The notes below the pieces were generated by a model, which saw only the letters and a list, made by a program, of their open reading frames with translations, ran no database searches and had not been told where the DNA came from. Positions 9,745 to 59,744 of a stretch of 64,000 nucleotides of DNA are shown here, one piece after another. A program made the translations under genes and the position numbers. The DNA is from Torpedo marmorata (lineage: Eukaryota). Where the stretch lies: assembly GCA_977017645.1 (NCBI GenBank), contig OZ360227.1, positions 148,676,001 through 148,740,000 of the forward strand, written 5' to 3'. Position 1 is the first letter of the stretch, and every line of letters starts with the position of its first letter.

Positions 9745-11163
9745 TATCGTCACAATCGCTCCACAGCAGACGCAATATCACTGGTTCGCCACTCAGCTCT
9801 GAATCACCTAGAAAACAACACATACATACGGCTGCTCTTCATCGACTACAGCTCAGCCTTCAACACCATTATTCACTCAGTGCTGGTCAACAAGCTCCAA
9901 ACCCTGGGCCTCTGCACCTCTTCCCCCCCCCACCCCCCCCGCCCCCACTCTGCAACTGGATCCTTGTCTTGCTCATCGGAAGAGCACAGTCAGTACAAAT
10001 TGGAAACAACATCTTTTCCTCATTGACAACCAACATAGGTGCACCTCAAGGATGCGTGCTTAGCCCACTGCTGCACCTATGACTGTGTGGCCAGGCACAT
10101 TTCCAATGCTATCTACAAATTAGCCAATGACACCACCGTTGTCAGCAGAATCATAGACGGCAATGAGGAAGTGTACAGGAGGGAGATAGATCAACTAGTT
10201 GAGTGGTGTCACACCAACAACCTTGCACTCAACATTAGAAAAACCAAGGAGATGATTGTGGACTTCAGGAGGAAGTCAGGAGGATACGAACCAGTCCTCA
10301 TCGAGGGTCAGCAGTAGAGAGGGTCAAGAACTTCAAATTCCTGGGTGTCAACACCTCCGAGGATCTGTCCTGGAGCCTCCATGTCGATGCAATCATGAAG
10401 AAAGCTCGCCAAAGGCTATACTTTGTAAGGAGTTTGAGGAGATTCGGTATGTCACCGAAGACTCTCTAAAACTTCTACACGTGTACTGTGCAGAGCATTC
10501 TGGCTGGTTGCATCACTGTCTGATACGGAGGTGCCAAAGCTCAGGACAAGAAAAAAGTTCCAAGTATTGTTAACTCGGCCTGCGACATCACGGGCACCAG
10601 TCTTCATTCCATAGAGGACATCTACAAGAGACGGTGTCTTAAGAAAGCAGCCTCTATCCTCAAGGACCCCCACCACCCAGACCATGCCCGCCACTCTGAT
10701 ACCATCAAGAAAAAGGTATAGGAGCCTGAAGTTGAGCACTCAGCGCCACAAGGACAGCTTCTTTCCCTCTGTCATCAGATTCCTGAATGAATAATGAATC
10801 ACAGACACTGCATTACTTTGACTTTTTCTTGCACTATTTTTATTTATTTTGTAAAGTGGTTTATCTTAATGTTTACACTGTGATGCTACCACAAAACAAT
10901 GAATTTTGTGACACACCAATAGCCTGAATACGACTGGATTGTCTGATCTTGGAAGCTAAGCAGGCACAGGACTGGTCAGTACTTGGAGGGGAGATGGCCA
11001 AGGAACACCAGGTGTTGTAGGTTTCTGTGAGGGGCGCTGGACAAAGTAGCGACCCTCTGTCTGCCTTACGGTAGACAAAAACTAAAGAATTTCATGTATG
11101 TTACATTCTAAATGTAGTATTACATCACAATAATGGAACCTTTACCTTTAAATTCTGATTCTA
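9745..11163 (+). mobile_element. Rex1/Babar-like LINE, 5'-truncated (RT region to 3' tail)
   Basis: [46 protein letters not shown]; 3' UTR like 26029-26973; ATTCTG tail at 11152-11163. Confidence 0.88.
10913..11150 (+). mobile_element. 5S rRNA-derived SINE (SINE3-type) with a LINE-like tail
   Basis: 10913-11024 aligns to 5S rRNA (GTCTGATCTTGGAAGCTAAGCAGG...TGGTCAGTACTTGGAGGGGAGA...GGTGTTGTAGGTTT), followed by about 125 bp of tail ending in ACCTTT repeats. Confidence 0.8.
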
Positions 11164-12609
11164 TTGCTACTCATTGTTGTTGCTGATGAGGCCAACTACT
11201 ATCGTGTCATCTGCAATCTTGATGAATCTGTTGGAGTGGATCTGGCATTGAAGTCGTGGGTCAGGAGCATGAACAGGAGGGGCTGAGCACACAGCCTTGA
11301 GGTGTACCACTGCTCAGTGTGATGGTGCTTGACGTTCTGCTGCCAACCTGGATAGACTGTGGTCTTTCTGTTAGGAAATCCAGAATACAGTTACAGAAAA
11401 GAGTGTTTACCCCAGTAAGGACAGCTTCACCACCAACCTCTGGGGTATGATTGTATTAAACGCTAAGATGAAGTCAATCAACAGCAGCCTGGCGTATGAG
11501 GCATTATTCTCCAGGTGGGTCAGGAGAGATTTGAGGGACAAGGCTATAGCATAGTTAGTTGAACAGGTCCATCTGTAGGCGAATTAAAATGGGTTCAGTG
11601 TCTCTGGGAGGTGAGCTTTGATATGTTCCATCACCAGACGCTCGAAGCATTTCATAATGGTGGAGGTCAGTGCCATTGGATGATAGTATTGAGGCCAGTT
11701 ATTGTCACCCTCTTTGGTACTGGATGATGGTTGCTGCCTTGAAACCCACGACATATACATTAAAACAGCTAAATCATTGTCACCTTACTCTGTCTAACAT
11801 TGCTGCACATAATTAAAGCTTTATCTCCCTCTCACTTTTTATTTTTCCAAACTCTGATAAGTAGTATTGTACAGAGAATAATTCAGCATTGTATATAGGT
11901 GTGACTTGTTCCTATTTTTGCTGTATATGGTTACAGATGTCCAGAAGATCATAACTCCAAAATAGAAATGTAATTCTGCTGGTAAAATATTACAGCTGCT
12001 TACCTCAGTTAGAAATGTACCTTACACTGCCAAAGACAGATGGGAGAGTATTGTTTCAAGTCTTAGTTAAATAAAATCTCCACTACCTTAGCAAAAATGT
12101 TGCATAAAATATGATATAACCAGTAGGGAAATTAATTCAAAAGATAGGCAAGATAAAATTTGAACCCTTAGTCATGCTGTCAGCATTACAGTCATAAATT
12201 ATTTGTTCTCAGCCAGTTAGGGCATGCATTTTTCCCATAAACTCTCACCTGGGGAAGGGAAATAATAAATATGGCACATTTTCAGTTTCTAATCGTTATG
12301 CAATTACTGGACAAATGTGGATTAAGCAACTGCATTTCTGGCAACTCGTTTCCAGTTTAAATTTTCTAATTAATGCCTACAATATAGAAATCTAAAGCTT
12401 TGAAGATACAATGGCGTAATACAGGAACAGATTTACAGAAAATGTAGTTCAAAGAGAGAAGAATGTTTACCTTGCTCCCATCAATTCCGTTATGGAGTCT
12501 GACAACTATCAAAGCTGCAGACACAGTAATTAACATAAATGAAAGTTGGAAACAGTATTACCCCTCCATAAGGTTTGCATAGTAGTGATTTTTTCACCTA
12601 AGCAAAGAA

Positions 12610-12800
12610 AGAGAATGTGGAGGCACTCATGGGTCAGGCAGCTCCCATGGAGAGAAATGAACAGTCAGTGCTTCATAGAGAAATAGAAGATGCAGATGCT
12701 GGAATCTTGAGCAGACAAAGAATTGCTGGAGGAACTCAGCAGGTCAGACAGCATCCACAGATAGAAATGGTCAGATTCTACCAAAAGATCCCAGATGTAG
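12610..12800. repeat. Short dispersed repeat of the kind flanking Penelope-like elements (related pieces near 507-620, 29120-29330, 43280-43350, 63860-63960)
   Basis: GATGCTGGAATCTTGAGCA...TGCTGGAGGAACTCAGCAGGTCAG.CAGCATC motif recurs in both orientations. Confidence 0.55.
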
Positions 12801-12934
12801 TATATGTTTGGTGAGGTCCAATCCCGTGCACATACTGTATATTAACAGAAAATTAGATGATTGAACCAACTCAAATTTGTACAGGTGCACAGGATACACA
12901 TGTCGGAGCACAGTAAACCTTTCCAGAATCACCT

Positions 12935-13488
12935 TGTAGCGACTTTGATCCAATAAATAGTCGCTTGGAGGCTAGGTGAGACACTTGTTCGTGACACATT
13001 TCAATTAATTTACTACCAAGTCCAATAGGTTCAAAAGGTTTATTAACACACGATGACTTGTAGCAATCTATAATAACGTAACAATCTTCTTTAACAAAAT
13101 ATGAACGATTCGCGATAACGGTCAATGAAAATTATGGGAGCCTCACTCACCCTCCTCAACTTTATGCCGTCATAAGGCTCAATGCGGGCTAAATGCCTGC
13201 CACAATTGCGCCTAAAGCTTTGCTCTTGCGCAAAGCTTTCCTATCCGCGGACCGCCCGCGCATGCGCCAGCCGGCACTACAATACACCTACCCACTGTGC
13301 ATGTGCCTGCCGGCACTCCAATATACGAACGCACTGAGCATGCTCCAGCCGGCAATCCAATATACGAATGCACTGCGCATGCTCCAACCGGCACTTGCAC
13401 ATTCGCACTACAACAAAGATGGCCTTATAAACCCCGGGATGAAAACTAAACAAGGTAAGTAAACAAATTACCCATTTTGGTTCCTACA
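12935..13488 (-). repeat. 3' LTR of the BEL element (554 bp, four copies of a 39-bp unit)
   Basis: Direct repeat of 18252-18724; GCATG cores at 13260, 13299, 13338 and 13377. Confidence 0.93.
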
Positions 13489-13725
13489 ATACCAGCCCCT
13501 AATTATTATAATGAGACGTAATGTCTTAAATAATAATTACACAATCAAGTACAAATAACAATAAACATATAACATTCAAATAATATACAAATCTTCTTTC
13601 TTCATAAGACCAGAGGTTACCAGCACATAGCCTTGGAAAAGAGTGATCTTTACCATCACTCTGGATCAATAAAGTCTGTAACCTGTGTAGTTGGCAAAAG
13701 CAACAAAATAAAGTCATTTTGTACA

Positions 13726-15165
13726 TCAAAGTTCCTCTGTCTCCAGAATCTTTGAGTTAAAATGTCGACCAGTAAACCTCAAATCTTCCTCAGACAAAAT
13801 AGATACAGTTTTCCTTTTGAATTTAACATCAGGCACTTCTTCAGCATGTTGTTTCACTTTCTTCCTTTCTTCAGCATTCCACTTCTCATAGGAAGAATTT
13901 GAACTCTCAGAACTAGATTTTGAAGAATTATCTGATCCTCTCGATTTTAATAAACGAGTCTCTTTAAACATTCCTGCAACAGATTTGCTCATCTTTTTCT
14001 TTCTTTTCCACAGTTGTTCATAGATAAGGTAAGATTCAAATGACATTATTTCTTCAAACTCATCAACAACCACCACATTTGTAGAAACCTTCTGTAAAGA
14101 GGTCGACTGGTTCCACGTATGGCTCATACAAATCTATTTAACTAAAACTGTAGTCTTTTCAACCACTTTAGTTTCTATTGCCTTTTCCTGCAATTTCACA
14201 TCCAAATTTGCAACTTTCAATTCAGTCTCATTTTCTGACCATTTATTTTGAATCCTTTTATTAGATTCTCTTTCTGTATCCAATTATTTCAATAAGAAAG
14301 TAATTCTCTCATTATCTTCTGAGAAATTAATCACTTGATCTAAAGTGAAAAGATCATGTGATACATCGGTACTTCTACTGTCAGCCCTGCTGTGGTAAAC
14401 TTGAAATATTTGAATTTCTTCATCTTGCTTGTTACATTGCTGCAATGCAATATCACTTTCTTTCTGCTTTGTTAGTAGCTGGGCCTTCAAGTTACATTCT
14501 TAATTGTTTTCTATAGTCAGCTGTTTTGTGTGATTAACCAATGACTTGTTCTCTTTCAAAAGATGAAACTCTTCCTCCAACCTTTTACATCTTGATAATG
14601 CTGAATCTCTTTCCTCAATAACTGTATTTATTTCTTCAGCAGTTATTCTTTTCTTCCACTTTCTGGCTTTGCAAATTATATTTACAATTAAACCTTTCTG
14701 GTTACTGTTTTCATGATTATCCAATATTTCCAATTCCTTTTTCAACATTTTGTTCTCTGAATACAGTTGCATTAAATTGTCAGTCACATTCTTCTTTATT
14801 CAATCAGCACAATTTTCTGCGTTCGCCAGTTTTGCAGCATGTTGCAACATTTCTTCATTGACCTTGTCTGCTGTAACCTCTGAGCTACAAAAGCTACTTT
14901 CAAATTTGTTCTCAATCATTTGTTTTGATCCCGCCTCAGATTTAATTACACAGGAATAATCACCAGTAGTATTTGCAACATCTTCTAATACATAATTTTT
15001 ATCTATTTCTGATGAAAATAATTCCTTCAATGTTGTTTTAGATGCCTTTGATTTATTTTCACATTGATTGTTTTCTTTTCTTCAAGTGACTTTCTTATTT
15101 ACAGTCTTTTGCTGTTCCCTTAACTCATCAAATTTCACAACCAAAATCCTGTTAACATTTATCGC
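13726..15165 (-). pseudogene. Decayed C-terminal coiled-coil frame replacing RT/RNase H/integrase, including a MIPOL1-like segment
   Basis: ORF pieces 14800..15030, 14500..14787, 14284..14490 and 13726..14127 share one frame and are separated only by stops; they follow the BEL post-protease motif VNRILVVKFDELREQQ. Confidence 0.75.
14389..14700 (-). pseudogene. MIPOL1: Captured intronless MIPOL1-like coiled-coil fragment
   Basis: KGLIVNIICKARKWKKRITAEEINTVIEERDSALSRCKRLEEEFHLLKE...LTIENN*ECNLKAQLL...ALQQCNKQDEEIQIFQVYHS resembles, from recall, MIPOL1 KMRITAEEMSALIEERDAALSKCKRLEQELHHVKE...LTAENNQERALKAKLL...LEEEIQTLRVYYS. Confidence 0.78.
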
Positions 15166-15169
15166 TAAC

Positions 15170-17789
15170 TTACTGAGCAATATCATTATTTCTTTCCAAT
15201 GGTCCTTTGATTGTCGAACTAAGCACTGTTTTAATAGCATAAGGTCCATTTCCCCTACTCTGTATTACTTCTAGTGGTTCCAAAGCCTTCGGTACATTTG
15301 AACCAAACTGCATCTCCACCTCAGAATTAACTTCAAGTATATAAACCATCCACAGATAAGACAACTGATGGATATCGTTTTGATGTGGAAAGTTTCCTTC
15401 GTGCACAGGCATAGTCTTCTGAGTGTATAAAATTGGAAGATCACAAAAATCTTTGTCATGTAATCCACAAACATCTAAGCCTGCAACAATGCTGGTTTCA
15501 AGGAGCTTTTCTTGTCCCATGGTTTTCAACATAATCTTCCCTGAAGATTAAGTTTGTTCATTAGTCCCACCGTGCAAAAAGACGCAGTGCTGCCTGGGTC
15601 GAGAAATCCATAAGTACATACTGTTGCATTCCCTTTCTTGCTCTTGTCTTGTACAGGCACTATTGAAAGTTTGCAGTTATCCACACCAGCCCCAGTAAGA
15701 CCACTTGTCTGAACCGAGGCTATAATACTGTTTTCTGATGTTTCCTTTGTTTCTGTTTGCTCCTTTTCCAATTCCTTGCTTCTTTGGTGGATATGCAGCA
15801 TTCTAGGATACTTCAAAGTGCATATGTTACAGTTAAGTCGCTTCTCGCAGTTTTTACTGATGTGGCCTTTACACAGACAGCTACAACATACTCCATTTTC
15901 CTTTAAAAAAGCGATCTTATCATTATGTTCCTTCTTTTCCAACCATAAACACATTTCCAAAGCATGTGCACCTTTACAGAACAAACAACTCTTCTCATTA
16001 GGCAAACTATCCTTTTCCTTAGTTACTTTATCCCTTTCTTTATTTAAAACTGACACAGTAGTAGCAAAACTACTCCTTTTCAATTTCGGACCAGGCTGTG
16101 AGTTAGACCTCCTTACATCTTTGTTCCTCATTGAAGTATCTCTGGTATTCCCATATATTGGATCTGTTTCAATGTACACCTGCCGTTCAAGGAAAACTAC
16201 CAAATTCTTTAAGGTAGCTCTTTGATCGTATTTTTCCTGGAAATCACAAGCCAAATTTCTCCATCTATCCCACATCCGGTAAGGTAATTTATTTAAGATG
16301 ATTCACATATTACCAGGCACGTCAAGCTCACAAATATTATCGATATCTTCCATGGCATTACAATATCCTCTTAAAAAGTGAGTGTATGCTTGTAGAGTTT
16401 TTACATCATTCGGTTTTATTGATGACCATTTAAGAGCTTTATCCATATAAGCTAAAGCAATTTGATGTTTGTTGCCAAAATGCTGTTCGAGTAAAGACTT
16501 AGATCTGTTTAATCCTCTATCCGAAGACATACGTTAACAATTCTTTACAAGTTCCCTTGGCTGTCCTTCTGTGAACATTTCCAAATAATAAAGACATTCT
16601 TCAGGGTCTTGCCATTTATTTTCAATATTGCATCTAAAAGATCTCATGAACGCTTGGTACTGAAGTGGGTCACCATCAAAAGCTTGTATCTCTTTCTTGG
16701 GCAGAGAGACTGTAGTTGGATCAATGATGCAGCGATTTCATTTTGTTTTCCCATGGATGATAGAACGTTGCTCTGTTCACTGCCTCTTGTAACAGGTTCT
16801 GTATCTGGAAACCTCACTGGTGTATGTTCTCCCGTATTTCTGATGCTTGACTCAAATGCCAAGGGAGCTGCAGCGTTTTACCGAACCCAAGCCGCAGCTT
16901 TGTCTGTGGATGTTACCACTGGTACATGTGACTTTATAACACCATGCTCTGGGAGGATTTGTCCTTGTATATGCATGTCTTGTACCCGTGGTACTAAAAT
17001 ATCTACCCTTTTGACTGGTTTCCTTTCCTGTGGCTCTTTTTTAAAATATGATTTCTTATCATCATACACTTTAGATAATTTACTCCGAACACCAGATACC
17101 ATTCAGCCTTCTGGTAGCTCCATTCTGGCCCTGGTAATAGCAATGTTTGCTTCCAGCTCCTGCTGCTCCTTTCTCTGCTTTAGCTGCTGCCTTAGCTGCT
17201 GCTGTCTCTGCCTTTGCTGCTCTTCCTCTTCTTCTAAAACATGTTTATCCTTAATCGATTTTTATCGTGCAAGAAGAGCTGCCAATTCAGCTTTAATCAT
17301 TGTACTTGACGATGCAGAACTTGAAGTATGAGAAACTCTGGAGCTTAAACCAGAAGAACTTTGTTTGCTTCCCCTGCTTTCAACATTTGACACACTGTCA
17401 CTTGATTGTATTTCGTCCTGCAGGTCAGATGTTGACTTCTTACTTACCCCTTTCTCCAATTCAAATTGTACATCCTTTGCATTTTCATCCTCTTCGTTTT
17501 CTTCATCTTTATCATTTTCTTCATCACCATTTGGTGACACATCTTCAGCGATTTCGACGTTGCTGTCTTCATGTTCAGTCGTTGTCTTCTGCAATGGTTT
17601 TGCAATGTCTTCATTCCCATCAACCAAAGTCGTGGCTTCTTCCACCGCCAGCTTCAGTCTTGCAATGAGAACACTTTTATTTCCACTTGTATCTAGTTTC
17701 CATCACCTTAGTTCTTCTTTGAGATCCGCAACCTTCATGTCTTCAATACGTTGATCCTCAACAGCAACATCAGCGGCTGCTGCGGCCAT
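15170..17789 (-). pseudogene. Decayed BEL SAP-Gag-protease polyprotein
   Basis: ATG at 17789 (MAAAAADVAV); SAP domain; acidic linker; DSVSNV/serine-rich and coiled-coil gag region; CLFCKGAHALEMC, CCSCLCKGHISKNC and CNICTLKYPRMLH knuckles; TYGFLDPGSTASF protease; stops and frameshifts. Confidence 0.85.
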
Positions 17790-18251
17790 TTTACTCGTCT
17801 TATTCCACCGTCCGTTGAGCATGCACAACACAAGCCAAATCAACAGTCCCCAATGGACAAGCGGCATCAAAATCCAAACTGTATTCACACTTGCCAAAGA
17901 TACACAGAAGGAGTCATTAGATGTATGCCTACCACTTCAGATGGCTGTAATATACTGCTATTAACAAACGAGTCTCCACCGCAGCATCCGTCAATAATAT
18001 CGCTGATTTTCAAGAAATGGCTTCACCAACGTGTTTATAGGACACTTTACTATAAGATTAGAAGCTCCGAATCCCTCTCTGGCTATTACTCATGGCAGAT
18101 GGATGTGGATTACAAACTGCCCCTAACTCGAGGCATTTCCAAGATGGCCACCATTTTATTTTAAATATCAATCCAAAGCACAGAGAGATTATTTTCTATC
18201 TTCTATCCTTCAATTTTCTGTTCCAATCAATACATTTTTTTGTTGACTAAA

Positions 18252-18724
18252 TGTAGCGACTTCGATCCAATAAATAGTCGCTTGGAGGCTAGGTGAGACA
18301 TTTGTTCGTGACGCATTTCAATTAATTTACTATCAAGTCCAATAGGTTCAAAAAGTTTATTAACACACGATGACTTGTAGCAATATATAATAACGTAACG
18401 ATCTTTAACAAAATATAAACAATCCGCGATAACGGTCAACGAAAATTATGGGAGCCTCACTCACCTTCCTCAACTTTATGCCATCATAAGGCTCAATGTG
18501 GGCTAACTGTCTGCCGCAATCGCGCTTAAAGCTTTGCTCTTGCGCAATGCGTTCCCATCCGTGGACCCCCCACGCATGCGCCAGCCGGCACTCCAATTTG
18601 CGAATGCACTGCGCATGCTCAAACCGGCACTCGCACATGCGCACTACAACAAAGATGGCCTTCTAAACCCCGGGACGCTGACTAAACAAGGTAAGTAAAC
18701 AAATTACCGATTTTGGCTCCGACA
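18252..18724 (-). repeat. 5' LTR of the BEL element (473 bp, two copies of the ~39-bp unit)
   Basis: Direct repeat of 12935-13488. Confidence 0.93.
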
Positions 18725-19003
18725 CACCTTATGTGCATACAGAGTGTAATTCCATCACTTGACACATAACAGTGCTGCATTAAAAAATAGAATTTCTAGG
18801 CCCTGTACTTTCGCAAAGGTACAAGCAATGTTAAAGTTTTGATAGGTACCTGGCTAAGAGTTGAAATCTGAGGAACTGTTTCTACGTCCGTGAAAAGCAA
18901 AATACAAGCAGCTATCTTAAAGCAAAAGACGATGGTAATTAGGTAGACCAAAATAAATGGCAGTGAAGAATGAAACTCCCTTTTCACAAAACTAGTTTTA
19001 GGT

Positions 19004-22000
19004 AGGAAAAATTTAATTGGAAAAAAATTGCATTATAATACGTTACAAACATATAAAATGGAAAAATTAATTGAAAGAACTAAGCAAAGATATTATGAAC
19101 TGGGAGAAAGAGCGCATAAAGTGTAGGCGTGGCAATTAAAGAAAGAACAAACTTCTAGAACTATAAATGCCATAAAAAAGAGTTCAAAGAAAATAACGTA
19201 TAAACCTTGAGAAATAAATGATTCCTTTAAGGAATTTTATTTAAATTTATATAAATCTCAAACTGATAAAGATGATTCTAAAATTAATGAATTTTTATCT
19301 AAAATTAAGTTACCTAGATTAAATACTCAAAGTAAAGAACTTTTAGATTTGTCGTTCTCGATGAGGGAAGTCAATGATGTTCTTAGTTCTTTAACGAGTG
19401 TAAAATCTCCAGGGGAGGATGGTTTCCCATCAGAATTTTATAAAGAGTTTAAGGATTTATTGATACCTCCATATATGGAGGTGTTGAAACAAATAACGGA
19501 AACTCATTCGTTACCGGAAACATTTTCAAATGCAATAATTACAGTTAGACCTAAAAAAGATAGAGATGTGTTGAAAGCAGAATCATATAGACCAATTTCA
19601 TTGTTGAATGTGGATTATAAGATAATGGAATGGCAAAAAATTTAGCAAATAGAGTGGCTAAATATTTACCAGATTTAATCCATGTAGATCAAGCTGGATT
19701 TATTAAGAATAGATATTCAAAAGATAATATAGCTAGATTAATTAGTTTAATAAATGTGGCACAAAAAAAGAGGAATTAGCATTAGTATTAACATTAGATG
19801 CCGAAAAGGCTTTTGACAGATTAGAGTGGAATTATTTATTTAAAGTATTGGGGAAATTTGGTTTTGGGACTACATTTATTAATTAGATTTAAACTATATA
19901 TAAAGAACCTTCTGCTAGAGTGGTGACAAATGGACAGATTTCTTCAAAATTTTCTTTGACTGGGTCATCTCGACAAGGATGTCCTTTGTCACCTGCATTG
20001 TTTATTTTAGCAATAGAACCTTTGGCAGAATTAATTAGACAAGATATTAAGATTGCAGGTATTAAAGTTGGAAGAGAAGAGTATAAAATTAGTTTATTTG
20101 CAGATGATGTATTGATTTATATGACAAAACCTATTACTTCTTTAATACAATTGAATGTTTTATTGAAAGAATACAGGGAAATATCTGGTTATAAGATTAA
20201 TTCTGATAAAAGTGAAATTATGGCATTGACACAAGGGGATTATAGTAAATGTAAAGAAATTACACAATTTAAATGGTCAAAGGAAGGAATTAAATATTTG
20301 GGAATAAAGATTGATACAAAATTAGCCAATGTATATAAATTAAATTATTTACCATTATTTATGAAAATTAAAAAAGATTTAGAAAGTTGGAAGGATTTAC
20401 CTATAACTTTAATAGGAAGGGTAAATTGTATTAAAATGAATGTGTTTCGAAGAATTCAATATCATTTTCAATCAATTCCTTATGAAATTCCTCCAAAATT
20501 CTTTAAAGATTTAAATTTAATTATTAGGAAGTTTTGTGGAAAGGAAAGTTGGCTAGAGTAGGTACGGAGAAATTAACTTGGAATTATGAAATGGGTGGTT
20601 TACAACTTCCTAATTTTCAAAATTATTATAAAGCAGCTCAATTAAAATTTGTTAATGAAATGTTTGATTTAGGAAAATCTTCTGCTTGGATTAGAATAGA
20701 ATTAAATAATATAGGAGAAGATTTGAAAGAAGAAGTTATTTATAAATGGAATTCTAAATTATTATTAACAAGAGGGAAAAATTCTCCTATTTTTAAACAT
20801 TTGTTAGAAATATGGAATAGAGTGGATATGGAGATAGGAGGGAAAGGGTTAATTTCTGGAAAAATGCCTTTATATCAAAATAAACTTATTCCATTTACTG
20901 TTGATAATCAATTATTTAAAATTTGGTTTCAAAAGGTAATTAAGAAAATAAATGATTGTTTTGAAGCTAGTAAATATATTACTTTTCAAAGAATGAAAGA
21001 AAAGTTTAATGTATTAAACAATACACTTTTTGCTTATTATCAAATCAGAGCATTTTTAGTTGAAAGGTTGGGTTATAGTTTGACTTTACCAAGACAAAGT
21101 GAACTGGAATTATTAGTTACTAATGGAGGTGTAAATAAATTTATTTCTCAAATGTATAGATTGTTACAGAGAAAAATGCCTAAATTTGGAACTCACAAAT
21201 CAAGATTAAATTGGGAATCAGATTTGAATGTAACAATAGACGAAGAACATTGGCAAGAATTATGTAAACTAAGTATGACAAAGATTATTAATGTTAGATA
21301 TAGATTCGTGCAATATAATTTTTTTCATCAATTATATTTAACACCTAAAAAATTAAAGAAATTTAATCTGACATTATCTGGTTTATGTTTTAGATGTAAT
21401 AGAGAGGAAGGTTCTTTTGTACATTCTACATGTTTCTGCCCAAAGATATATTATTTTTGGTTGAAAGTTAAAAAAATTTTTAGATAAAGTATTAAGTATT
21501 ACACTTCCAATGGACCCTATGATATTTTTGTTTGGAGATATTAAAATAATTAGTATTAAGATGAAATTAAATATGTATCAAATAGAATTTTTGCGAATTG
21601 CTTTAGATTTTTCTAAGAAATGCATTGCTATTACTTGGAAATCTGATGTAGATTTAGGGTTAGAAAGATGGCATGCAGAACTTCGTTCGTGTATACCACT
21701 TGAAAAAATTACTTATAATTTACGTAATAAATATCATTTCTCTTTGAAAATATGGAGCCCATTTATAAAAACTGTTGGTTTAAGGATTTGAAGATCTCTG
21801 GATATCAGATCTGACTGGCGAACCTATCTTCCACAATAAATTCAGTTTATAGTTGTTCTTTTTTAGATTGACATCTTCCTGACTCTATCTTTTACTTTCT
21901 TTCTTTTCGGGTGGGTTAGGGAGGGGAGGGAGGGAGGGGGGGGTGAAAATGTATCACATGTATTTTGATAATTTTGCATTTTATATTCTGTATTCTGTGA

Positions 22001-22050
22001 TTTAACAAATTTAAATAAAATATATTTTTTTTTAAATAAAAAAAACAAAC
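19004..22050 (+). mobile_element. 5'-truncated L1/Tx1-clade LINE (ORF2 RT and C-terminal region)
   Basis: [34 protein letters not shown]; A-rich tail; 15-bp TSD AAACTAGTTTTAGGT at 18989-19003 and 22051-22065. Confidence 0.93.
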
Positions 22051-30765: not shown

Positions 30766-31953
30766 TGTTACGTACCAGACAGCAGCGATAAAAAGTAGCC
30801 CAGATGGTGTTATATTTAAAATAATATTTTTAATTATTAATCAACAATTATATAACACCTAATCTAATTTAACTAATTTATCTAAACTTAACTAAATTTA
30901 TCTACACTTATCTAAATTAAACCCCAAATATGCACGAATATATTGGTATGTGTGGAATACACCAAGCCACTACAGCTCAAGGCCCAATTCTTGGAATGCA
31001 GTTCAAATTTCAGTTCGGAAATTCAGTGAAGACACGTGGGCTTGAAATTGATGTGACACACAGGCTTTAGATGGTTGAGACACACAGGCCTTAGAATGTT
31101 GAGTCACGCAGGCCTTAGATGAATGCGACCCGTAGGTTTTAGATCAAATTAGCAGTTCGTGAAGTGGGTGAAAGAGACCGGGGGTGACAGAATGTTGATT
31201 AACTCACAAAACCCTTGTTCAGGTGCTTCAATGAAGTGTTCTTTTTAGACGAGTGCCGACTAAAATTCCCCTCTTCTTTGGCGTAGGGGATACGAAGCAA
31301 ATTATGCTCACGAAGCTTCCGGAACCATTTTCGTGGTCAGTCGAAGTAAAGTGCAGTATTTCTTCTGCAACTAGAACCCTTTTTGTGGGTCAGTCGAAGT
31401 AGAGTGCAGTATTTCTTCTGCAACTAGAACCCTTTTCGTGGGTCAGTCGAAGTAGAGTGCAGCATTTCTTCTGCAACTAGAACCCTTTTTGTGGGTCAGT
31501 CGAAGTAGAGTGCAGTATTTCTTCTGCAACTAGAACCCTTTTCGTGGGTCAGTCGAACAAAAGTGACCTTCACTCTTTTGGTCACAAAGTGGTCTTCTCA
31601 TTCCTCTATAAGCAAAAGGAGGAAATCTGACAGTTTGTCTATAACCACACAATGAGGCCAAGTGGGATTCTCATTCCCACAGACAGGTCGAAGAGCTGTT
31701 TACTCTTGTGCTGCCTACTTAAAATGGCCCCCTGAGCGAAATGTGCACTGTCGCTTCAATAAGCTGGTCACATGGTCTCTGCTTCAGGGCTTCTTGCCTT
31801 CACTCTGCAAATGTATCAAGTCAAGAACATGCTGTCTTCGAAGCCTGCAGACCTTTTCACAGTCACTTTCCAAAACCTGCAAGGGTTGTTCAATCTGTTC
31901 TCTTTAAGGGACAGTACCACTCAAATAAAATGAACAAAAAATGGAAGAACGTC

Positions 31954-48810: not shown

Positions 48811-49925
48811 ACTTGGGAATCCATTTAGGTACAAAGAAAGTGAGAGTGATAGATAAATGGGATCGTACAACATAATACAAGTTGGCCAAGGACAACAGAG
48901 CTTTAGATAATTTCAAATATATGTTGGTGCAGAACACAGAAAGCCAACACGACATTGGAATAGACAATTTTATACCGTGCTGATGAAGATTTTGCCTCAG
49001 AAGCAGATTCATGGAACTGGAAGCAGGTCACCTCAGCGTCAAAAGTCACACCGAGTTTACAAACAAATTGGGTTCAGATTTAAGCATTCCCCTGGAATCA
49101 GTGTCAAGGGAACAGAATTTGTGGCAGGGACTGAAGCTAAAGGCTTCTGTTTACCCAACATTGCCCTACGGGGGCTGTGAGATGCTCTATAGCACCATCA
49201 CAGGAGTATATGGAACCAGGTGACGATGAGGATGAAGAAGCGCTACTGCGCATGCGCGAGAAGTTGCACAAGCGCAGAACACAAAAAATCCAAATTGTCA
49301 GCGAACAGGACACTACACCCCAGGCCAGCGACGAAGAAGAGGAATATGAACAAGAATTACCAACACCTATAGTTCCTAAAGACAAAGGTAGGAAACCTAA
49401 ACTGGATGAGGAAAGATATATATCCATAATGAGAAAATTTAAAGAGTTGAGAACAGAAATGAAAAGTTATTTTGAAGTGGTAATAAAAGTGAATAACAGA
49501 ATGGACAAAGTTAATAAAAAAGTTAAAAATATTGAGAATGAGATGGAAGGAGTACAAGGAAGAGTGGATCGTATGGAAAATAATACAGATGCATGGATTA
49601 GTGAAAGAAAACAGCTCTGGGATTGATGAGCTCATCAATAACTCCAAAAGACTAGAAGTTACACAAGAACTGAAAGGCTTTTATTGGCAAAAGAATGGAG
49701 CTACATTCGTGCTGATGATCTGTCCCGGACTGGGGGTGAAGCAGTGGCACAATGGCCTTTATTCAAGGGGGTCTGTGGGAGGAGCCACCGGGACAGTCAG
49801 CAGGGGCATGTCCAGACTTATCACCCAGCCCACAACCCATACACAGTGGTTTACCACATTCACCCCTCCTTTTTAAAAGAGTCCAGCGGGGTGAAGGGTA
49901 TAACAGTATTTACAAGAAATTAAAA

Positions 49926-52900
49926 TTACAAATTGAGTCGATCAGGCGGTCGAGTCCGCCGCTGTGATCGGCGCAGTACTTGTGGTGATGGGGCAGGTGG
50001 CAGAGCTGCCTGCTGCCTGATCTGGAGTACCGGCACGTCTGGTGATCGCGAAACCTCAGATGAATATGCTGGTAAGTTTGGTGTCTCTTGTGTGTCCTTA
50101 GTGGTAGGTAAGGGGGTAACCGTAACTACGGGGTGGTCGAGGGCAGCGGCGGGTCCCAGTGCTCCTGCGGACGCCAGGTCCCGGATGGAAACCGTGTCTT
50201 CCCGCCCATCAGGAAAAGCCACGTAGGCGTACTGGGGGTTCGCGTGTAATAATTGGACCCTCTCGACTAATTTATTTATTTATTGCTCCTGACATGTTTC
50301 CGGAGCAGCACTGGCCCTGAGGACGTCAGCCATGCTGGTAGGGTAGTCCCGGTGGTCGACTTCTTGGGGAAGGAAAAGAGTCTCTCATGAGGTGTAGCAT
50401 TGGTGGATGTACATAGCAGGGATCGGATAGAGTGGAGTGCCTCGGGAAGGACTTCTTGCCAGCGGGAGACTGGTAATCCCGTAGACCTGAGGGCTAAGAG
50501 TGTGGCTTTCCAGACCGTGGCGTTCTCCCTCTCCACTTGTCCATTACCCCGTGGGTTATAGCTCGTGGTCCTGCTAGTCGCGATACCCTTGGCCAGCAGG
50601 TATTGTCGCAGCTCGTCACTCATAAATGAGGACCCTCGGTCGCTATGGATGTAGCAGGAGTATCCAAACAGCGTGAAGAGTTTGTGGAGGGCCTTTATGA
50701 CTGAGGTGGTCGTGGTATCGGGGCAGGGGATGGCGAAAGGGAACCGCGAGTACTCATCAATAACGTTGAGGAAGTACACATTGCGGTCGGTGGATGGAAG
50801 GGGGCCCTTAAAGTCGACGCTTGGTCGCTCAAATGGGCAGGTCGCTTTTATTAACTGTGCCTTGTCAGGACGGTAGAAGTCCTGACCTCTTCCAGGGAGT
50901 ACAGTAGATTACGGGCTTTCACAAAGTGAAAAAGCCTGGTGACTCCGGGGTGGCAGAGGTCACAGTGGAGGGCATATAACCGGTCGATCTGTGTGCTAGC
51001 GCACGTCCCCCAGGATAGAGCGTCGGAGGGATCATTGAGCTTCCCGGGCCGGTACATTATATCGTAGTTGTTGGTGGAGAGTTCGATCATCCACCTCAGA
51101 ATTTTATCATTTTTGATTTTACCCCGCTGCTGGTTGCTGAACATGAATGCGACTGAGCGTTGGTCAGTCAGCAGGGTAAACCTTTTTCAGGCGAGATAGT
51201 GCCTCCAGTGCCTGATAGCTTCCACTATGGCTTGGGCCTCTTTCTCCACCGCTGAGTGCCGAATTTCTGGGCCTTGAAGGGTACGGGAGAAGAACGCCAC
51301 CGGTCTTCCCGCCTGGTTGAGGGTAGCAGCCAGTGCGAAGTCGGACGCGTCACTCTCTACTTGGAAGGGAGTGGACTCGTCCACTGTGTGCATTGCTGCT
51401 CTGGCAATGTCCCCTTTTATGAGGCTGAAAGCCTCACGTGCATCCGTTGAAAGGGGAAAAGTGGTGGACTTGACAAGGGGGCGGGCCTTGTCCGCATAAT
51501 TAGGGACCCATTGGGCATAGGAGGAAAAGAAACCCAAGCACCTTTTGAGGGCTCTGAGGGTGTGGGGAAGCGGTAGTTCCAACAGGGGGCGCATGCGGTC
51601 GGGGCCGGGGCCGATGACCCCGTTCTCCACAACACACCCCAGGATAGCGAGTCGGGTGGTCCCGAATACGCACTTATCCTTGTTATAGGTGAGGTTAAGT
51701 GCTTTGGCCGCCTGGAGGAACTTCTGAAGTTTGTTATCGTGGACCTGGCAGTCGTGGCCGCAGATGGTGATGTTATCTAAGTATGGAAAAGTGGCCTTTA
51801 ATTTGCATTGGTCCACCATCCTGTCCATCTCCCTCTGGAAAATGGATACGCCATTTGTGACACCAAAGGGAACACGCAGGAAATGATAGAGTCTGCCGTC
51901 CGCCTCGAAAGTGGTGTAGGGGCGGTCCTCCCGGCAAATGCGGAGCTGGTGGTAGGCAGATTTGAGGTCTATGGTGGAGAAAAGCTTATACTGAGCTATC
52001 TGGTTCACCATATCTGCAATGCGTGGTAGAGGGTACGCGTCAAGCTGCGTGAACCTATTGACGGTCTGACTATAATCTACCACCATACTGTTTTTGTCCC
52101 CGTTCTTGACGACAACCACCTGGGCCCTCCAGGGACTTGTACTCGCCTCGATGATCCCTTCCCCAAGTAACCGCTGCACTTCTGACTTAATGAATGCCCT
52201 GTCCCCTGCGCTATATCTCCTGCTTTTGGTTGCCACAGGTTTACAATCAGGGGTCAGGTTGGCGAATAGCGATGGGGGCGGGATCTTGAGGGTGGATAGA
52301 CTGCAAGTAGTGTGGTGTGACAAAATATTCTTGCTGTTCTTAAGGTGATTGCCGACAGTAATCGGTGGGAGGGGCTCGTCATAATCTATAGTCACACTTT
52401 GGAGGTGACTCTGGAAGTCGAGGCCCAGTAGTACAGGTGCGCACAGTCGGGGCATGACCAATAGCGTGAAGTCCCGGTATTCCGTGCCCTGTACCACTAT
52501 CGTCGCTACACAACCCCCCTGGATGTCTGTTGTGTGCAATCCGGAAGCCATGGAAACCCTCTGGCTTACCGGCTGTGTCGTGAGGCCGCATCGCTGTACC
52601 GTGTCAGGGTGGATGAAGCTCTCTGTGCTGCCTGCGTCGAACAGACAGTTTGTCCTGTGTCCCTCGACCAGAATGTTCATCATCGACCTCGCGAGTTGGT
52701 GGGGTGCACTCTGGTCGAGTGTAACTGACGCCAACGTTGGATCGCTGTCTTGATCCGACGTCGCGATGGAGTGCCTGCTGTCCCGGGATAGCGGCACCCT
52801 GTGTCGGCTCGTTGGCGTGGAACAAAATGGCCGCTCCCATGACTCGCACGTGTTGGCGGCGGGTAGGTAAGATGGCGGCGACAGAAGTGACGAAACACAA

Positions 52901-53916
52901 GATGGCCGCCCCCATACCTCGCACGTGTTGGCCGCGGCCGCGGGTAGGTAAGATGGCGGAGGCGGAAGTGACGACACGCAAGATGCCCGCCCCCGAGTCT
53001 CGCATGCGGCGCTGCTCAGTCCCGCTCGCGGTTTAGATCTACAGACCTTAGCGAAGTGGCCTTTCTTCCCGCAGTTGGAGCAGGTCGCTTCTCGGGCCGG
53101 GCAACATTTCCGGGGGTGCTTCTCAAGCCCGCAGAAATAGCATTTCTCGGGCTCGCGGCTGATGGCCGCAGTGGTCAATTAGCTGGCATGGTGGGGGGTC
53201 GGCAGCATCCACGGGGCCTGCTGGAGATCGCGCGCCTGCATAGCATCCGAATTCTGTAGTGCGGCCTCCAGCGTGTCGGCCAGTTCGATCGCGGAACGGA
53301 AGGTGAGGTCAGCTTGTTCCAGCAGCCGCTGGCGCATATACACTGACCTGGTCCCCGTAACAAAAGCGTCTCTCACTAGGAGCTCTGCATGCTGTTCAGC
53401 CGTCAGTCCCCGGCAGTCTCAGGCCCACACGAGTGTTTTTAGGGCTTGTACGAACTCCACGCTCGACTCCCCGGGCCGCTGCTGCCGCGTCGCTAGCCTA
53501 TGTCTTGCATATACGGTATTCACAGGCCGTATATAAGACTCTAATGGGCAGAGGATTTAAGGGTTATGGGGATAAGGCTGGTAAGGGGTACTGATAGTAG
53601 TGATCAGCCATGATCTGTAAAATGGCGGTGCTGGCTCGACGGGCTGAAGGGCCTACTCCAGCTCCTATTGTCTATTGTCTATATACTGTCTTTTAAGCGT
53701 ATTCATCGCGTCCTCATAAGTCTGCAGAACTTGGATCATAGAGTAGACTCGTGGGCTTACCCAAGAGAGGAGGACCTTGCGTTTTGCGGCGTCTTCTTGC
53801 ACTTTGATCTCCTCCAGAAACGATTCAAAACAGGCTAGCCAGAGTTCGAAGGCATTGCCAGCTTCCGGTGTTTGTGGGTCGAGGTCCAGTTTGTCTGGTC
53901 TCAAGACATTCTCCAT
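49926..53916 (-). pseudogene. Gypsy gag-pol, broken by stops, frameshifts and an insertion
   Basis: ORF pieces 53665..54066, 53179..53376, 51187..53178 (663 aa), 50851..51144, 50276..50779 and 49926..50222. Confidence 0.9.
53536..53679 (+). mobile_element. Short CR1-tail insertion in Gypsy gag
   Basis: TATATA duplicated on the flanks; (TATTGTC)n tail; same sequence family as 45081-45223. Confidence 0.85.
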
Positions 53917-54618
53917 GTTTACAATTTTGCCAATAAAATTGATGAGTCCATCAATAACTCCAAAAGACGAGAAGTTACACAAGAACTGAAAGGCTTTTAT
54001 TGGCAAAAGAATGGAGCTACATTCGTGCTGATGATCTGTCCCGGACTGGGGGTGGAGCAGTGGCACAATGGCCTTTATTCAAGGGGGTCTGTGGGAGGAG
54101 CCACCGGGACAGTCAGCAGGGGCATGTCCAGACTTATCACCCAGCCCACAACCCATACACAGTGGTTTACCACAGGGATAAAATAAATGTACTAGAAAAC
54201 TTCAGTAGAAGAAATAATATTAAAATTGTTGGCCTTAAAGAAGGCACAGAAGGTGCAGATCTGATAAATTTTTTTCAAGCATGGATACCAGAAGTTTTGG
54301 AAATAACAATGGATAAAAACCTATTGAAATTGAAAGAGTGCACAGAGCTTTAAGACCACGTCAACTACAAGATCAAAAGCCAAGATCAAAACTGATAAAA
54401 TGTCTTCGTTATCAAGATAGAGAGACAATATTAACAGCAGCGGTACGAAGAGCTAAAGCAGGTAAAGGCAAATTGCAATCTGATGGAAACAAAGTCTTCT
54501 TTTATCTGGATATAAGATATGAATTGTTGAAAAGAAGAAAAGAATTTAACAAGGCGAAGAATGACTTGTGGAAAATAGGATAAAAATTTTACCTACGACT
54601 CCCTGCTACTCTGAAGAT

Positions 54619-57600
54619 CTTTTTTTTTTTTAAATATTTTATTTGAAATTTTTAAATCACACAATACACAGTTTAAAACGCAAATTTCTCAAATTGCATG
54701 TGATACATTTTCACCCCCCCCTCCCTCCCCTCCCTAACACTCCCAAAAAGAAAGAAAGAAGAAGAAAAGGATAGAGTAAGGAGAATGTCAATCTAAAAAG
54801 AACAACTATAAACTGATCTTATTGTGGAGGATAGGCTCGCCAGCCAGAACCGATGTCCAGAGATCTTCAAATCCTTAAACTCACAATTTTTATATATGGG
54901 CTCCATACTTCCAAAAAGAAATGATACTTATCACGTAAATTATATGTAATTTTTTCGAGTGGTATGCATGAACGCAATTCTGCGTGCCATCTTTCCAACC
55001 CTAAGTCTACATCCGACTTCCATGTGGTGGCAATACATTTCTTAGAAACGGCTAAAGCAATCCGTAAAAATTCTGTCTGGTACATATTTAATTTCCCTTT
55101 AACACTGGTTCCTTCAATATCTCCAAACAAAAATATCATAGGATCCATTGGAAGTGTAGTTCCTAATACTTTATCTAAACATTTTTTAATTTTCAACCAA
55201 AAATCATAAACTTTTGAACAAAACCATGTAGAATATACAAAAGAACCTTCCTCTTTATTACATCTAAAACATAAACCAGATAATGTCGGATTAAATTTCT
55301 TTAGTCTTTTAGGTGTGAAATATAGTTGATGAAAAAAATTATATTGCACCAATCTATATCTAACATTAATAATCTTCGTCATACTTCGTTTACATAATAT
55401 TTTCCAATGCTCTTCATCTATTGTTACATTCAAATCTTTTTCCCAATTTAATCTTGATTTATGAATTCCTGTTTTAGGAAGTTTCCTCTGTAACAATCTG
55501 TACATTTGAGAAATAAATTTAGGCACACCTCCATTAGTAACTAATAATTCCAATTCAGTCTGTCTTGGTAAGGTCAAACCGCAGCCCAACCTTTCCCCTA
55601 AAAACGCCCTAATTTGATAGTAAGCAAAGATTGTATTATTTGCTACACTAAATTTATCTTTCATTCTCTGAAACGTAATAAATTTACCAGCTTCAAAACA
55701 ATCATTTATTTCCTTAATTCCCTTTTGGTACCAAATTTTAAATAGTTGATTATCGACAGTAAATGGAATAAGTTCATTTTGATATAGTGGCATTCTTCGA
55801 GAAATTGATCCTTTTGCTCCTATTTCTCTATCCACTCTATTCCATATTTCTAACAAGTGCCTAAAAATAGGGGAATTTTTCCCTCTTGTTAATAATAATT
55901 TAGAATTCCATTTATAAATGACTTCTTCTTTCAAATCCTCTCCTATATTATTTAATTCTATTCTCATCCAAGCAGAGAGCTTCCCTAAATCAAACAATTC
56001 GTTAATAAATTTTAGTTGGGCTGCTTTATAATAATATTGAAAATTAGGAAGCTTTAGACCACCCATTTCGTAGTTCCAGGTTAATTTCTCCAATCCTACT
56101 CTTGCCAACTTTCCTTTCCACAAAAATGTCCTAATAATTAAATTTAAATCCTTAAAAAACTTCTGAGGGATTTCATAAGGAATTGATTGAAAAAGATACT
56201 GAATTCTCGGAAAAACGTTCATTTTAATACAATTTACCCTTCCCATTAAAGTTATAGGCAAATCCTTCCATCTCTCCAAATCCTTTTTTATATTCACAAA
56301 TAGTGGTAAATAATTTAATTTATACAAATTGGATAATTTTGTATCAATCTTTATTCCCAAATATTTAATTCCTCCCTTTGCCCATTTAAATTGTGTAATT
56401 TCTTTAAATCGCTATAGTCCCCTTGTGTTAAAGGCATAATTTCACTTTTATCCGAGTTAATCTTGTAACCAGATATTCCCCCAAATTCTTTCAATAAAAC
56501 AGACAATTGTGTTAGAGAATTAATAGGTTTTGTCATATATATCAATACGTCATCTGCAAACAAACTAATTTTGTGTTCTTCCTTACCAACTTTAATACCT
56601 GCAATCTTACTATCTTGTCTAATTAATTCGGCTAAAGGTTCTATTGCTAAAATAAACAATGCTGGCGATAAAGGACAACCTTGTCTAGTAGACCTGGTTA
56701 AGGAAAATTTTGAAGATATTTGACCATTTGTGACCACTCTAGCAGACGGTTCTTTACATATAGTTTTAATCCAATTAATAAATGTATTTCCAAAACCAAA
56801 TTTTTCCAGTACCTTAAATAAATAATTCCACTCTAATCTATCAAAAGCCTTTTCGGCATCTAATGTTAATACTAATGACAGTTCTTCTCTTTTTTGTGCC
56901 ACGTTTATTAGACTAATTAATCTAGCGATATTATCTTTTGAATATCTGTTTCTAATAAAGCCTGCCTGATCTCCATGGACTAAGTCTGGTAAGAACTTAG
57001 CCACTCTGTTTGCTAAAATTTTCGCCATTATTTTATAATCCACATTTAACAACGATATTGGTCTATATGATTCTGTTCTCAACAAGTCTCTATCTTTTTT
57101 CGGTATAACTGTTATTAATGCATTGGTGAAGGATTCCGGTACAGAATGGGTTTCCGTTATTTGTTTTAACACCTCCATATAAGGAGGAATCAATAAGTCC
57201 TTAAATTTCTTATAAAACTCTGATGGGAAACCATCCTCCCCTGAGATTTCCCACTTGTCAAAGAACTAAGAACCCCATCGACTTCCCTCATCGTAAATGG
57301 TGAATCTAAAGATTCTTTACTAAGTGCATCTAACCTGGGCATCCTAATTTTGGATAAAAATTTGTTAATTTTAGAATCATCTTTATCGGCTTGAGATGTA
57401 TATAAATTCAAATAAAAATCTTTGAAAGAATCATTTATTTCTCGCTGTTTATAAGTTATTTTCTTAGAATTCTTTTTTATAGCCGTTATAGTTCTAGAGG
57501 TTTGTTCCTTCTTTAATTGCCAGGCTAAAACTTTATGAGCTCTTTCTCCCAGTTCATAATACCTTTGCTTAGTCCTTTCAATTAGTTTTTCCAATTTATA

Positions 57601-59744
57601 TGTTTGTAACGTATTATAATATAACTTTTTCCCAATTAAATCTTTCTTCTTTTCTTCTGATCTCTTCTTTTGTAGATCCTTCTCCAAAAATTCAATCTCC
57701 TTCTCCAAATTATCCAATTCCTGAATATTTTCCTTCTTAACTTTTGCTGAGTAACTTATTATCTGACCTCTTAAATAAGCTTTCAAAGCATCCCAAATAA
57801 TAAATTTGTTTTCCATGGAATCTGTGTTAATCTGTAAAAATTCTTGGATTTCTCTTCTTATATATTTACAAAAATCCACTCTCTTTAGTAAAGAAGAGTT
57901 AAACCTCCATTTATATATAATTTTTTCTTTTTCTGGAATTATGCACGACATTAATAAAGGCGAGTGGTCAGAAATTAATCTAGCCTTATATTGTACTTGA
58001 GTCACCCTATCCTGTAATTGTGATGACAGCAAAAACATGTCTATTCTAGAATAAGAATCATGTCAAGAGGAATAAAAGGAGTAATCTTTTTCTCTCGGAT
58101 TCAACTTCCTCCAAATATCAATTAGATTCAGGTCTTCCATCATCGTTAGAATTCTCTTAGCAGTTTTAGTTCTAATAATTGATTTGGATATTTTATCCAT
58201 TACTGGGTCCAGACAACAATTAAAATCTCCACCAATTAAAATATTATCGTATGCCTCTGACAGATGCATAAAGGAATCTTGAATAAATTGATCATCTTGC
58301 GTATTCGGCACATATATATTCATAAGAGTCCACATTTCTGAGTATATCTGACAGTTAATTAAGACGTATCTTCCTGACCCATCAGTAACCACTGAATGTA
58401 TTTTAAGGGGTAGCTTCTTATTAACTAGAATAGCGACCCCTTTAGCCTTGGAATTAAATGAAGATGCCACCACTTGACCAACCCAATCTCTTTTCAACTT
58501 CTGATGTTCTAAATCAGTCAGATGCGTCTCCTGTAATAAAGCTATGTCTGCATTCAATTTTTTGATGTACGCTAAAGTTTTCTTCCTTTTAATAGGGTTA
58601 TTGAGCCCATTTATATTAATACTAACTACATTTATTAATTTACTGTCCGCCATTGCTGATGTACAATAACTTTCTCTCCCTCGGATCCGCTGGCTCCCCC
58701 CCCCCACATCTGTAAACTATTTGACATCTCCTTAGAAGAAAAAAGAGAAAAGGATATAAAAAGAGAATAGAGAACGAGAGAACCCCCTATATATAATACT
58801 GGTAAATTTACACCAGTACTACCCCCCTCCATTGCTCGGGAAGTGGCCCTCGCCACTAAAATGACGCGCGACTAGGTCAAGGAAGACCAGAAGTCCATCT
58901 CCCCCATACAGATTCCGAACAAATTATGTTATCGTCTCTTCGTCAAACAACTCCAAGATTCCTATTAACTTAATCTTCATCGGTTACTACCCCATTGACA
59001 TGTTCCAAAACTCTTGACGAGAGCAATTTTAATGATTTGGTGACGCTCCGTAAAACCTTGACCTTTCTTTGAGTCTGGAAGCATATTTGCATGATGTAAA
59101 GCTTCTTGGGGATCAGTAAAGAACATTGATTGGTTCTCTGCAGACTGCACTCTCAATGTCGCAGGATACCTAAAAGAAAATTTATAACCTTTTCCCCACA
59201 AAACCGCTTTTGCCGGATTAAATTCCTTCCGTTTCTTTATGATTACCGAACTCAAATCCGCGTAGAAAAATACCCTGTTCTTATCGATTCTCAACGGGTC
59301 CTGCTGAATTCTTGCTTTTTGTATAGCCAATTTCAATATTTTTTCCTTATCTTGATATCTTAGGCATCTAATTAGAATTGAGCGTGGCCTTTGATCAGGA
59401 TACGGTTTCCTCCTGCTATCCCTGTGGGCTCTGTCCAGTTCAAATCCATTCGGAAAGTGATCCTTTCCTAAGGTCTGCGGGATCCAGTCTTGAAAAAAAG
59501 TAGTTGGAATGGTTCCTTCAAAATCCTCAGGCAGTCCCACAATTTTAATATTATTTCTTCGGCTTTGATTTTCTAATACATCTAATTTTTGTAAAAGTTT
59601 GTTCTTTTGCAGCTCCCAACCCGTGAACGAATCTTCCACTTTGTCCACTCTGTCCTTGTAGTCCACCAAATCTTCATCGTGTTCCTCAACCTTTTCTTCA
59701 ATTTTCTTAACCCTCGATGACACTTTATCCACAATGACTGAAAA
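54619..59744 (-). mobile_element. L1/Tx1-clade LINE (element B): most of ORF1, complete frameshifted ORF2, poly(A)
   Basis: ORF1 58977..59732 (ENQSRRNNIKIVGLPE); ORF2 endonuclease NINGL, LQETH, GGDFN, SDH; RT FADD; poly(T) at 54620-54632; same family as 19004-22050. Confidence 0.95.

Follow-up and report, generated by a model that had tools for sequence, protein, structure and literature searches.

The window analysed here, a stretch of 64,000 nucleotides, carries on its minus strand (positions 12935-18724) a BEL/Pao retrotransposon of 5,790 bp whose Gag begins with a SAP domain that, judged by DNA similarity, almost certainly descends from a host gene of the SAFB family. In this element pol has been replaced by pieces of the host genes BRCA1, MIPOL1 and Elongin A (ELOA), which continue the Gag-protease frame, and the MIPOL1 piece, with its exons in the order F-G-H-B-C-D, very probably came from a circular RNA.

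The element, of about 5.8 kb, is bounded by LTRs and by a perfect 5-bp target-site duplication (12930-12934 and 18725-18729). Its 5' LTR (18252-18724) and 3' LTR (12935-13488, with TG..CA ends) agree at 437 of 473 aligned bases, a K2P distance of 0.081. Between them, along the minus strand, lie the SAP domain, an acidic tract, the Gag core DUF1759 (16255-16680; Pfam E 1.1e-6), a CCHC zinc-knuckle region recognised by sequence inspection (15793-15987), the protease region (15109-15680), a foreign block of 1.36 kb and a remnant of the element's 3' end (13491-13745), which contains the end of pol and a purine-rich stretch and is 72-76% identical to autonomous copies. The LTR pair with its target-site duplication, and a Gag with DUF1759 and CCHC knuckles followed by a BEL-type protease motif, assign the element to BEL/Pao. 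Reverse transcriptase (RT), the Pao peptidase A17 region and integrase are absent from it and present in two relatives (L081 and L083), and the window element is a non-autonomous derivative. This particular copy is dead: it has more stops and frameshifts beyond the stop in the SAP, and its protease is frameshifted where that of sister copies is open into the cargo. Of 20 sisters fetched, 15 reach this foreign block and five are cut or interrupted earlier, with pol in place of the block in none. All 30 bins of the element are covered by contigs from each of four public runs, belonging to four studies; one of these runs may be the source sample itself. Elsewhere the window contains two inverted LINE-like copies (19006-22023 on the plus strand and 54634-57646 on the minus strand, 85-90% complementary) and a 53-bp tandem repeat of about six units (31282-31599).

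The first-pass annotation had proposed a SAFB/SLTM-like SAP domain at the Gag N-terminus, followed by an acidic tract and hidden by a stop codon that arose through CpG decay. The frame, for which the annotation named no strand, is on the minus strand; it opens with an ATG at 17789 and meets the stop at codon 29 (17705-17703). With X placed at that codon, Gag residues 15-47 (17649-17747) match the Pfam SAP family PF02037 with E 2.4e-10 and 40.2 bits, where the curated cut-off is 23.9, which bears out the domain by the profile search that had been suggested for it, and the acidic tract is present downstream. The CpG origin of the stop also fits, since a CpG-type sense codon occupies this position in the host gene described below and in 14 of 14 autonomous copies. 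Thirty sisters were fetched by their likeness to the window, a choice biased towards the stop, and among the 25 that could be scored 16 carry the stop, eight a CpG-type sense codon and one the alternative product of CpG decay. Beside the stop lies a second change, at a position that, mapped by offset, would be one required for the SAFB2 fold (PMC9958909). Nothing was found in the plus-strand reading of the same region. Three broader comparisons placed the domain less specifically: when long proteins were searched with the SAP region, none of 29 candidates reached E<=0.01, which is weak evidence; a protein-cluster atlas, used as a lead only, placed it among generic SAP clusters; and the nearest SAP structures in the PDB were those of MKL1, E1B-AP5 and Hcc-1, with no SAFB-family entry matched.

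The view that this is an ordinary TE-borne SAP, grouping with widespread transposon domains rather than with SAFB/SLTM, had its basis in the finding that, of the 30 best-scoring Pfam SAP loci retrieved, 29 were the starts of BEL Gags, and in the public Gags described below. It was overturned by a match to a host gene that extends over 5'UTR and exon 1 into exon 2. A motif search for host SAFB returned TE copies only, and the SAFB-type gene on C54 was found via its RRM; a sister subfamily whose SAP is far closer to the SAFB family surfaced in a motif search. A pattern search demanding a splice donor gave a single match in the genome, exon 1 of a gene on C68, which lies in a CpG island and ends in a GT donor. 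Exons encoding an RRM and an ER-rich region follow downstream, and an N-terminal SAP, a middle RRM and an ER-rich region make up the layout described for the SAFB family (PMC10901741). The sister subfamily is 88-89% identical in DNA to this single-copy gene from about 40 nt of the 5'UTR through exon 1, after which the intron is missing and some 16 nt of exon 2 follow directly. In the window element the host-derived 5'UTR and exon 1 (17653-17820) have diverged further: the match spans 178 nt at 68% identity, with E 5e-12 in a search of 120 kb. Graded intermediates are present.

The genome contains three SAFB-family paralogues, the C68 gene and two on C54 that lie about 1 Mb apart, and exon 1 was recovered for one of the C54 genes. 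At the 37 bases that differ between C68 and C54, the window family follows C68 at 24, C54 at 6 and neither at 7; at the 16 synonymous-diagnostic codons it follows C68 at eight and C54 at none; and its 5'UTR score was equalled in 0 of 2000 shuffles for C68 as against 347 for C54. All five genome families follow C68 at the diagnostic bases. A direct C54 origin, or a C68/C54 mosaic, was ruled out at the DNA level. By likeness to the human sequences we provisionally take C68 to be SLTM and C54 to be SAFB, so that the donor is likely SLTM-type; the proposed SAFB/SLTM likeness thus stands as descent from a host SAFB-family gene, and falls where it would point to the SAFB-type paralogue. The same division applies to the SAFB-like loop, whose amino acids in the window family are indeed 89% like C54 and 64% like C68, whereas the loop DNA follows C68, so that the SAFB look is likely convergent. 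In helix 1 the SAP has moved away from either host gene and is now 38-57% identical to C68.

Autonomous relatives with about 80% DNA identity to the window element occur in the 6.2-Gb genome, which the best hits of the MIPOL1 and BRCA1 pieces mark as that of a cartilaginous fish, likely a ray. Among 20 loci picked by their Pao peptidase, 18 carry the SAP and nine have single frames of more than 2,000 aa; two of the latter were scanned (L081 and L083), and the SAP, RT, A17 and integrase domains are all present in both. Net dN/dS of the SAP, reckoned from the host gene, is 0.20 (0.06-0.62) for the autonomous copies, 0.36 (0.12-0.87) for family C, 0.40 (0.15-1.04) for the window family and 0.49 (0.15-1.62) for family B, the last two intervals including 1; these values come from pairwise subtraction over 32 codons, with intervals from 100 resamples of at most eight copies, some of them unusable. 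They indicate that the SAP of autonomous copies is under purifying selection, and a SAP that Pfam still recognises, free of indels, persists even where synonymous sites have diverged by as much as about 1.4 per site. Retention differs among 20 copies with host-like cargo, in which the SAP core was lost in frame in five and kept in seven, several of these being intermediates, while the 5' end is not visible in eight. With the core deleted in five of the 12 cargo-bearing copies whose 5' end can be seen, the SAP is dispensable at least in cis. The loss is common to L164, L169, L172, L174 and L180, in which the host 5'UTR and start codon are kept.

Such copies without the SAP core but with UTR and start retained are what would be expected if the element had profited from the 5'UTR and start codon of the host, with the SAP as no more than an in-frame, foldable filler. 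Two of the family dN/dS intervals include 1, in line with that account, as is the absence of a SAP from all 10 of the nearest public Gags scanned, some of which may be truncated gene models. We nevertheless consider a mere passenger role improbable, because the SAP has stayed intact over the divergence just given with a dN/dS of 0.20 in autonomous copies, and because Gags of other BEL clades also have a SAP in this position. Among 18 public BEL Gags pre-screened from 150 hits, 17 have an N-terminal SAP at E<=0.01, ten of them above the cut-off, and a SAP at the BEL Gag N-terminus is not unique to the window lineage. These public SAPs are identical to any of the three host SAPs at 9-19 of 32 positions and show no lean towards the SAFB family (11 of 16 anchored).

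This recurrence allows a different history, in which a generic SAP was present beforehand in the Gags of the clade and was exchanged for the host version through homologous template switching. A quick Gag-core tree was built with 75 rows, leaving out 11 of 59 genome loci for insufficient length. In it the 49 genome rows group together (SH-aLRT 99) and are surrounded by Gags that lack a SAP; the host-like copies branch off first, on short branches, and the other SAP-bearing Gags fall elsewhere. The AU test on 26 rows does not reject placing every SAP-bearing Gag in a single clade (p 0.142), and gain and replacement of the SAP are therefore both compatible with the data. Replacement agrees with this p value and with the 17 of 18 public Gags, but in the best tree SAP-less Gags stand between both SAP groups, and since the five genome families all follow C68, any swap must predate them all. 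We regard it as rather unlikely, and it changes the history of the SAP, not its host origin. Within the genome, the cargo of the window family and of L164-L183 is 84-88% alike and their Gag 73-79%, and the window Gag adjoins autonomous copies in the tree, which suggests recombination between Gag and cargo lineages.

As to function, small modules that act as chromatin tethers are found in several retroelement proteins, such as MLV p12, foamy-virus Gag and chromodomain integrases. By analogy with these, whose folds differ, the SAP may hold the incoming complex on chromatin, and we lean towards this role as a chromatin or dsDNA tether. The SAP of SAFB2 binds dsDNA, with a slight AT preference, via a Lys-Ser pair (PMC9958909), and the loop of the window family has this pair at a position that, mapped by offset, would be the same. 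An AT-rich insertion preference was not seen in the six of 60 loci that were usable, an underpowered sample in which flank GC was about 0.40 against a background of 0.40. The donor's family suppresses L1 and LTR/ERV elements (PMC10901741), and the stolen SAP, which is under selection and whose loop has converged on the form of a paralogue, could alternatively compete as a decoy with host SAFB/SLTM proteins that restrain retroelements. We think this antagonism unlikely: the host defence is described in the same source as RNA-based, which weakens the decoy reading, the SAP was taken with neither the RRM nor the ER-rich region, and the drift of helix 1 to 38-57% identity with C68 is unlike close mimicry. 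With SAFB1, SAFB2 and SLTM themselves (PMC10901741, PMC9958909) the window family shares the descent of its SAP and the Lys-Ser pair in the loop; it differs from them in that the capture was confined to the 5'UTR, exon 1 and the first 16 nt or so of exon 2.

The foreign block begins with a BRCA1 piece (14713-15108), which covers about residues 233-378 of the ray protein P0171, with 68% identity in the window and 76% in a sister. The MIPOL1 piece lies between those of BRCA1 and ELOA. It consists of the 3' part of exon F with exons G and H, spliced (14390-14712; 86-88% identical to the host exons, protein 81% to ray MIPOL1), and, placed downstream of them, the upstream exons B and C with the first 18 nt or so of D (14130-14389; B and C 84-85% identical to the host exons on C40, the start of D assigned by inspection). 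About 20 nt without an assigned source separate it from the ELOA piece (13748-14109), which is spliced, in linear order and internally deleted in the window subfamily, with 84% and 90% identity to host exons on C41. In longer sisters the ELOA piece comprises five spliced exon parts, likewise in linear order, and matches Pfam Elongin_A and PDB 8oev. Another Elongin-A-like gene, also spliced, is found at C25:175318134-175337048 (assembly label G000). The window also holds a young second LTR element (49622-54174) with 237-nt repeats that are 98% identical and a 663-aa frame (51187-53178); this Gag-like frame is 36% identical to the first 175 residues of P0171, a BRCA1 gene model that seems to begin with a retrotransposon Gag.

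The joining of the exon H donor to the exon B acceptor (14389-14390) has the form of a back-splice. Host MIPOL1 on C40 extends over 320 kb, in which each exon is single-copy between exons A and I and all are bounded by AG and GT. Of 57 exon-H hits, 51 show the H-to-B join with no gap or overlap (gap 0), the rest being the host exon, three hits without B and three offset. Three non-overlapping exact patterns of the join have 4,630, 185 and 1,162 matches in the genome, at least 5,977 in total, with none for reversed controls; the true number is likely 10,000-20,000, because, among 12 sisters retrieved through their SAP end, just four match the first pattern. Among the contigs listed, the join is bridged in three of the four public runs. 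Closed into a ring, exons B-H would make 780 nt with an uninterrupted reading frame. All copies with a part of exon F start at the identical F base, or later through a deletion, which points to one capture of the piece.

A permuted order could also result from a backward template switch, from trans-splicing or from a tandem duplication since lost, given that the element contains several other switches, that the two linear joins have three bases in common around the exon ends, and that about 587 of the 780 nt were captured, less than one turn of a circle. Against a non-circular source, which we judge improbable, stand the exactness of the join at both splice sites and the rarity of exon-end pairs among backward pairs with a shared 3-mer (28 of 15,859), together with the single-copy state of every MIPOL1 exon between A and I; moreover, exon A or I occurs in none of the 59 element loci, and the linear H-I join has no genome match at one mismatch. 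In one copy (L182:6835-7936) a block of 405 nt from the cargo, in which a portion of B adjoins a portion of F, is tandemly triplicated; this is not a rolling-circle turn, because exons C-E are skipped. Junction copies of a shorter subfamily lie in and around the introns of two donor genes (C40:64321601-64641600 and C41:38900001-39040000, G000), with six in 460 kb around the donor genes and none in 160 kb elsewhere; the same regions have four exact-pattern hits against 0.6 predicted from the genome-wide rate, which may reflect regional density.

Selection on cargo residues was considered and rejected, as dN/dS does not differ from 1 for MIPOL1 (0.84, 0.45-1.75) or BRCA1 (1.06, 0.39-5.93) and is borderline for ELOA (0.42, 0.19-0.93), a value that includes silent change in the host; measured against autonomous copies, Gag and protease have 0.35 and 0.27. 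From the protease to the end of the cargo no stop is common to more than 29% of copies, and an apparent common stop at 15084 proved to be a local frameshift of the window copy itself. If change is modelled simply as neutral, the probability that no stop arises is 0.077 for the MIPOL1 part, whose open frame may thus be due to chance when it is taken by itself, and 0.024 when ELOA is included. Selection has likely kept the cargo frame open but not the cargo residues, perhaps to avoid RNA decay.

The history that best explains these features, which we favour with moderate confidence, would begin with template switching onto a co-packaged spliced mRNA, a route of capture within the particle that has been proposed for LTR retrotransposons (PMC5131818) and that would have given Gag a host 5'UTR, start codon and SAP. 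Descendant families have kept the SAP, likely as a dsDNA handle that would hold the Gag/cDNA complex on chromatin. Later switches would have replaced pol with the BRCA1, back-spliced MIPOL1 and ELOA pieces, giving rise to a non-autonomous family mobilised by helpers, in which selection would have preserved the open frame of the cargo and not its residues.

LTR-mediated retroposition, including chimeras of several genes, has been described by Tan et al. (2016, PMC5131818), with BATUMI as a Pao example. As in those cases, pieces of spliced host mRNA from several genes were inserted in sense and in frame, replaced internal ORFs between LTRs and transposed again; in the window element the introns are removed, each mRNA is partial and an internal ORF is replaced. 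Unlike the cases there, the captured SAP is a standing N-terminus of autonomous Gags that appears to be under purifying selection, the MIPOL1 piece has a back-splice (the string 'circ' is absent from the main text of that paper), and copies number in the thousands. Pseudogenes derived from circRNAs were reported by Dong et al. (2016, PMC4897178), who called their mechanism mysterious and whose largest case had 33 high-confidence copies. The MIPOL1 piece resembles them in its reversed exon-exon junction, where a downstream donor is exactly joined to an upstream acceptor, in lacking exons from outside the circle and in its LTR association; it differs in lying inside a defined LTR element with a target-site duplication, in a Gag-protease frame and at the copy number given above. 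The SAP of Zisupton and Chlamys Penelope-like elements (PMC8557442) is, like that of the window lineage and other BEL Gags, an accessory DNA-binding module carried by a mobile element; its donor is not named in the passage that describes it, whereas the one here was traced at the DNA level. A search of literature outside subscription journals, Repbase and the supplements of Tan et al. and Dong et al. returned nothing on a SAP in BEL Gags, on capture of a SAFB-family gene by a retrotransposon or on circMIPOL1, and 'SAP' occurs 0 times in the accessible text of PMC3118150 and PMC8321522. Each ingredient has a precedent, and neither a selected SAP of traced donor in autonomous Gags nor back-spliced cargo at such copy number turned up in print in this search.

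Although Gag accessory domains are common, their donors are rarely traceable, and here the donor gene, the spliced join, the intermediates and the selected descendants are all in one genome, so that the path of a host domain to a retroelement part can be followed, from a family that restrains retroelements. The back-splice-type junction, within the frame of an LTR element that has a target-site duplication, bears on the mechanism of circRNA retrotransposition, and its copies exceed by more than 100 times the largest number given in PMC4897178. It is a tentative proposal, which we hold at somewhat less than even, that one lineage took the SAP of a host anti-transposon factor as a working part of its Gag, tuned it towards the DNA-contact loop of a paralogue, and also packaged a stop-free circular RNA of 780 nt whose junction now stands at 10,000 or more sites. 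If true, LTR template switching would be a route for circular RNAs into genomes. Annotators should expect both gene models and circRNA calls in these cartilaginous fishes to be confounded by fragments of MIPOL1, BRCA1 and ELOA, which number in the thousands.
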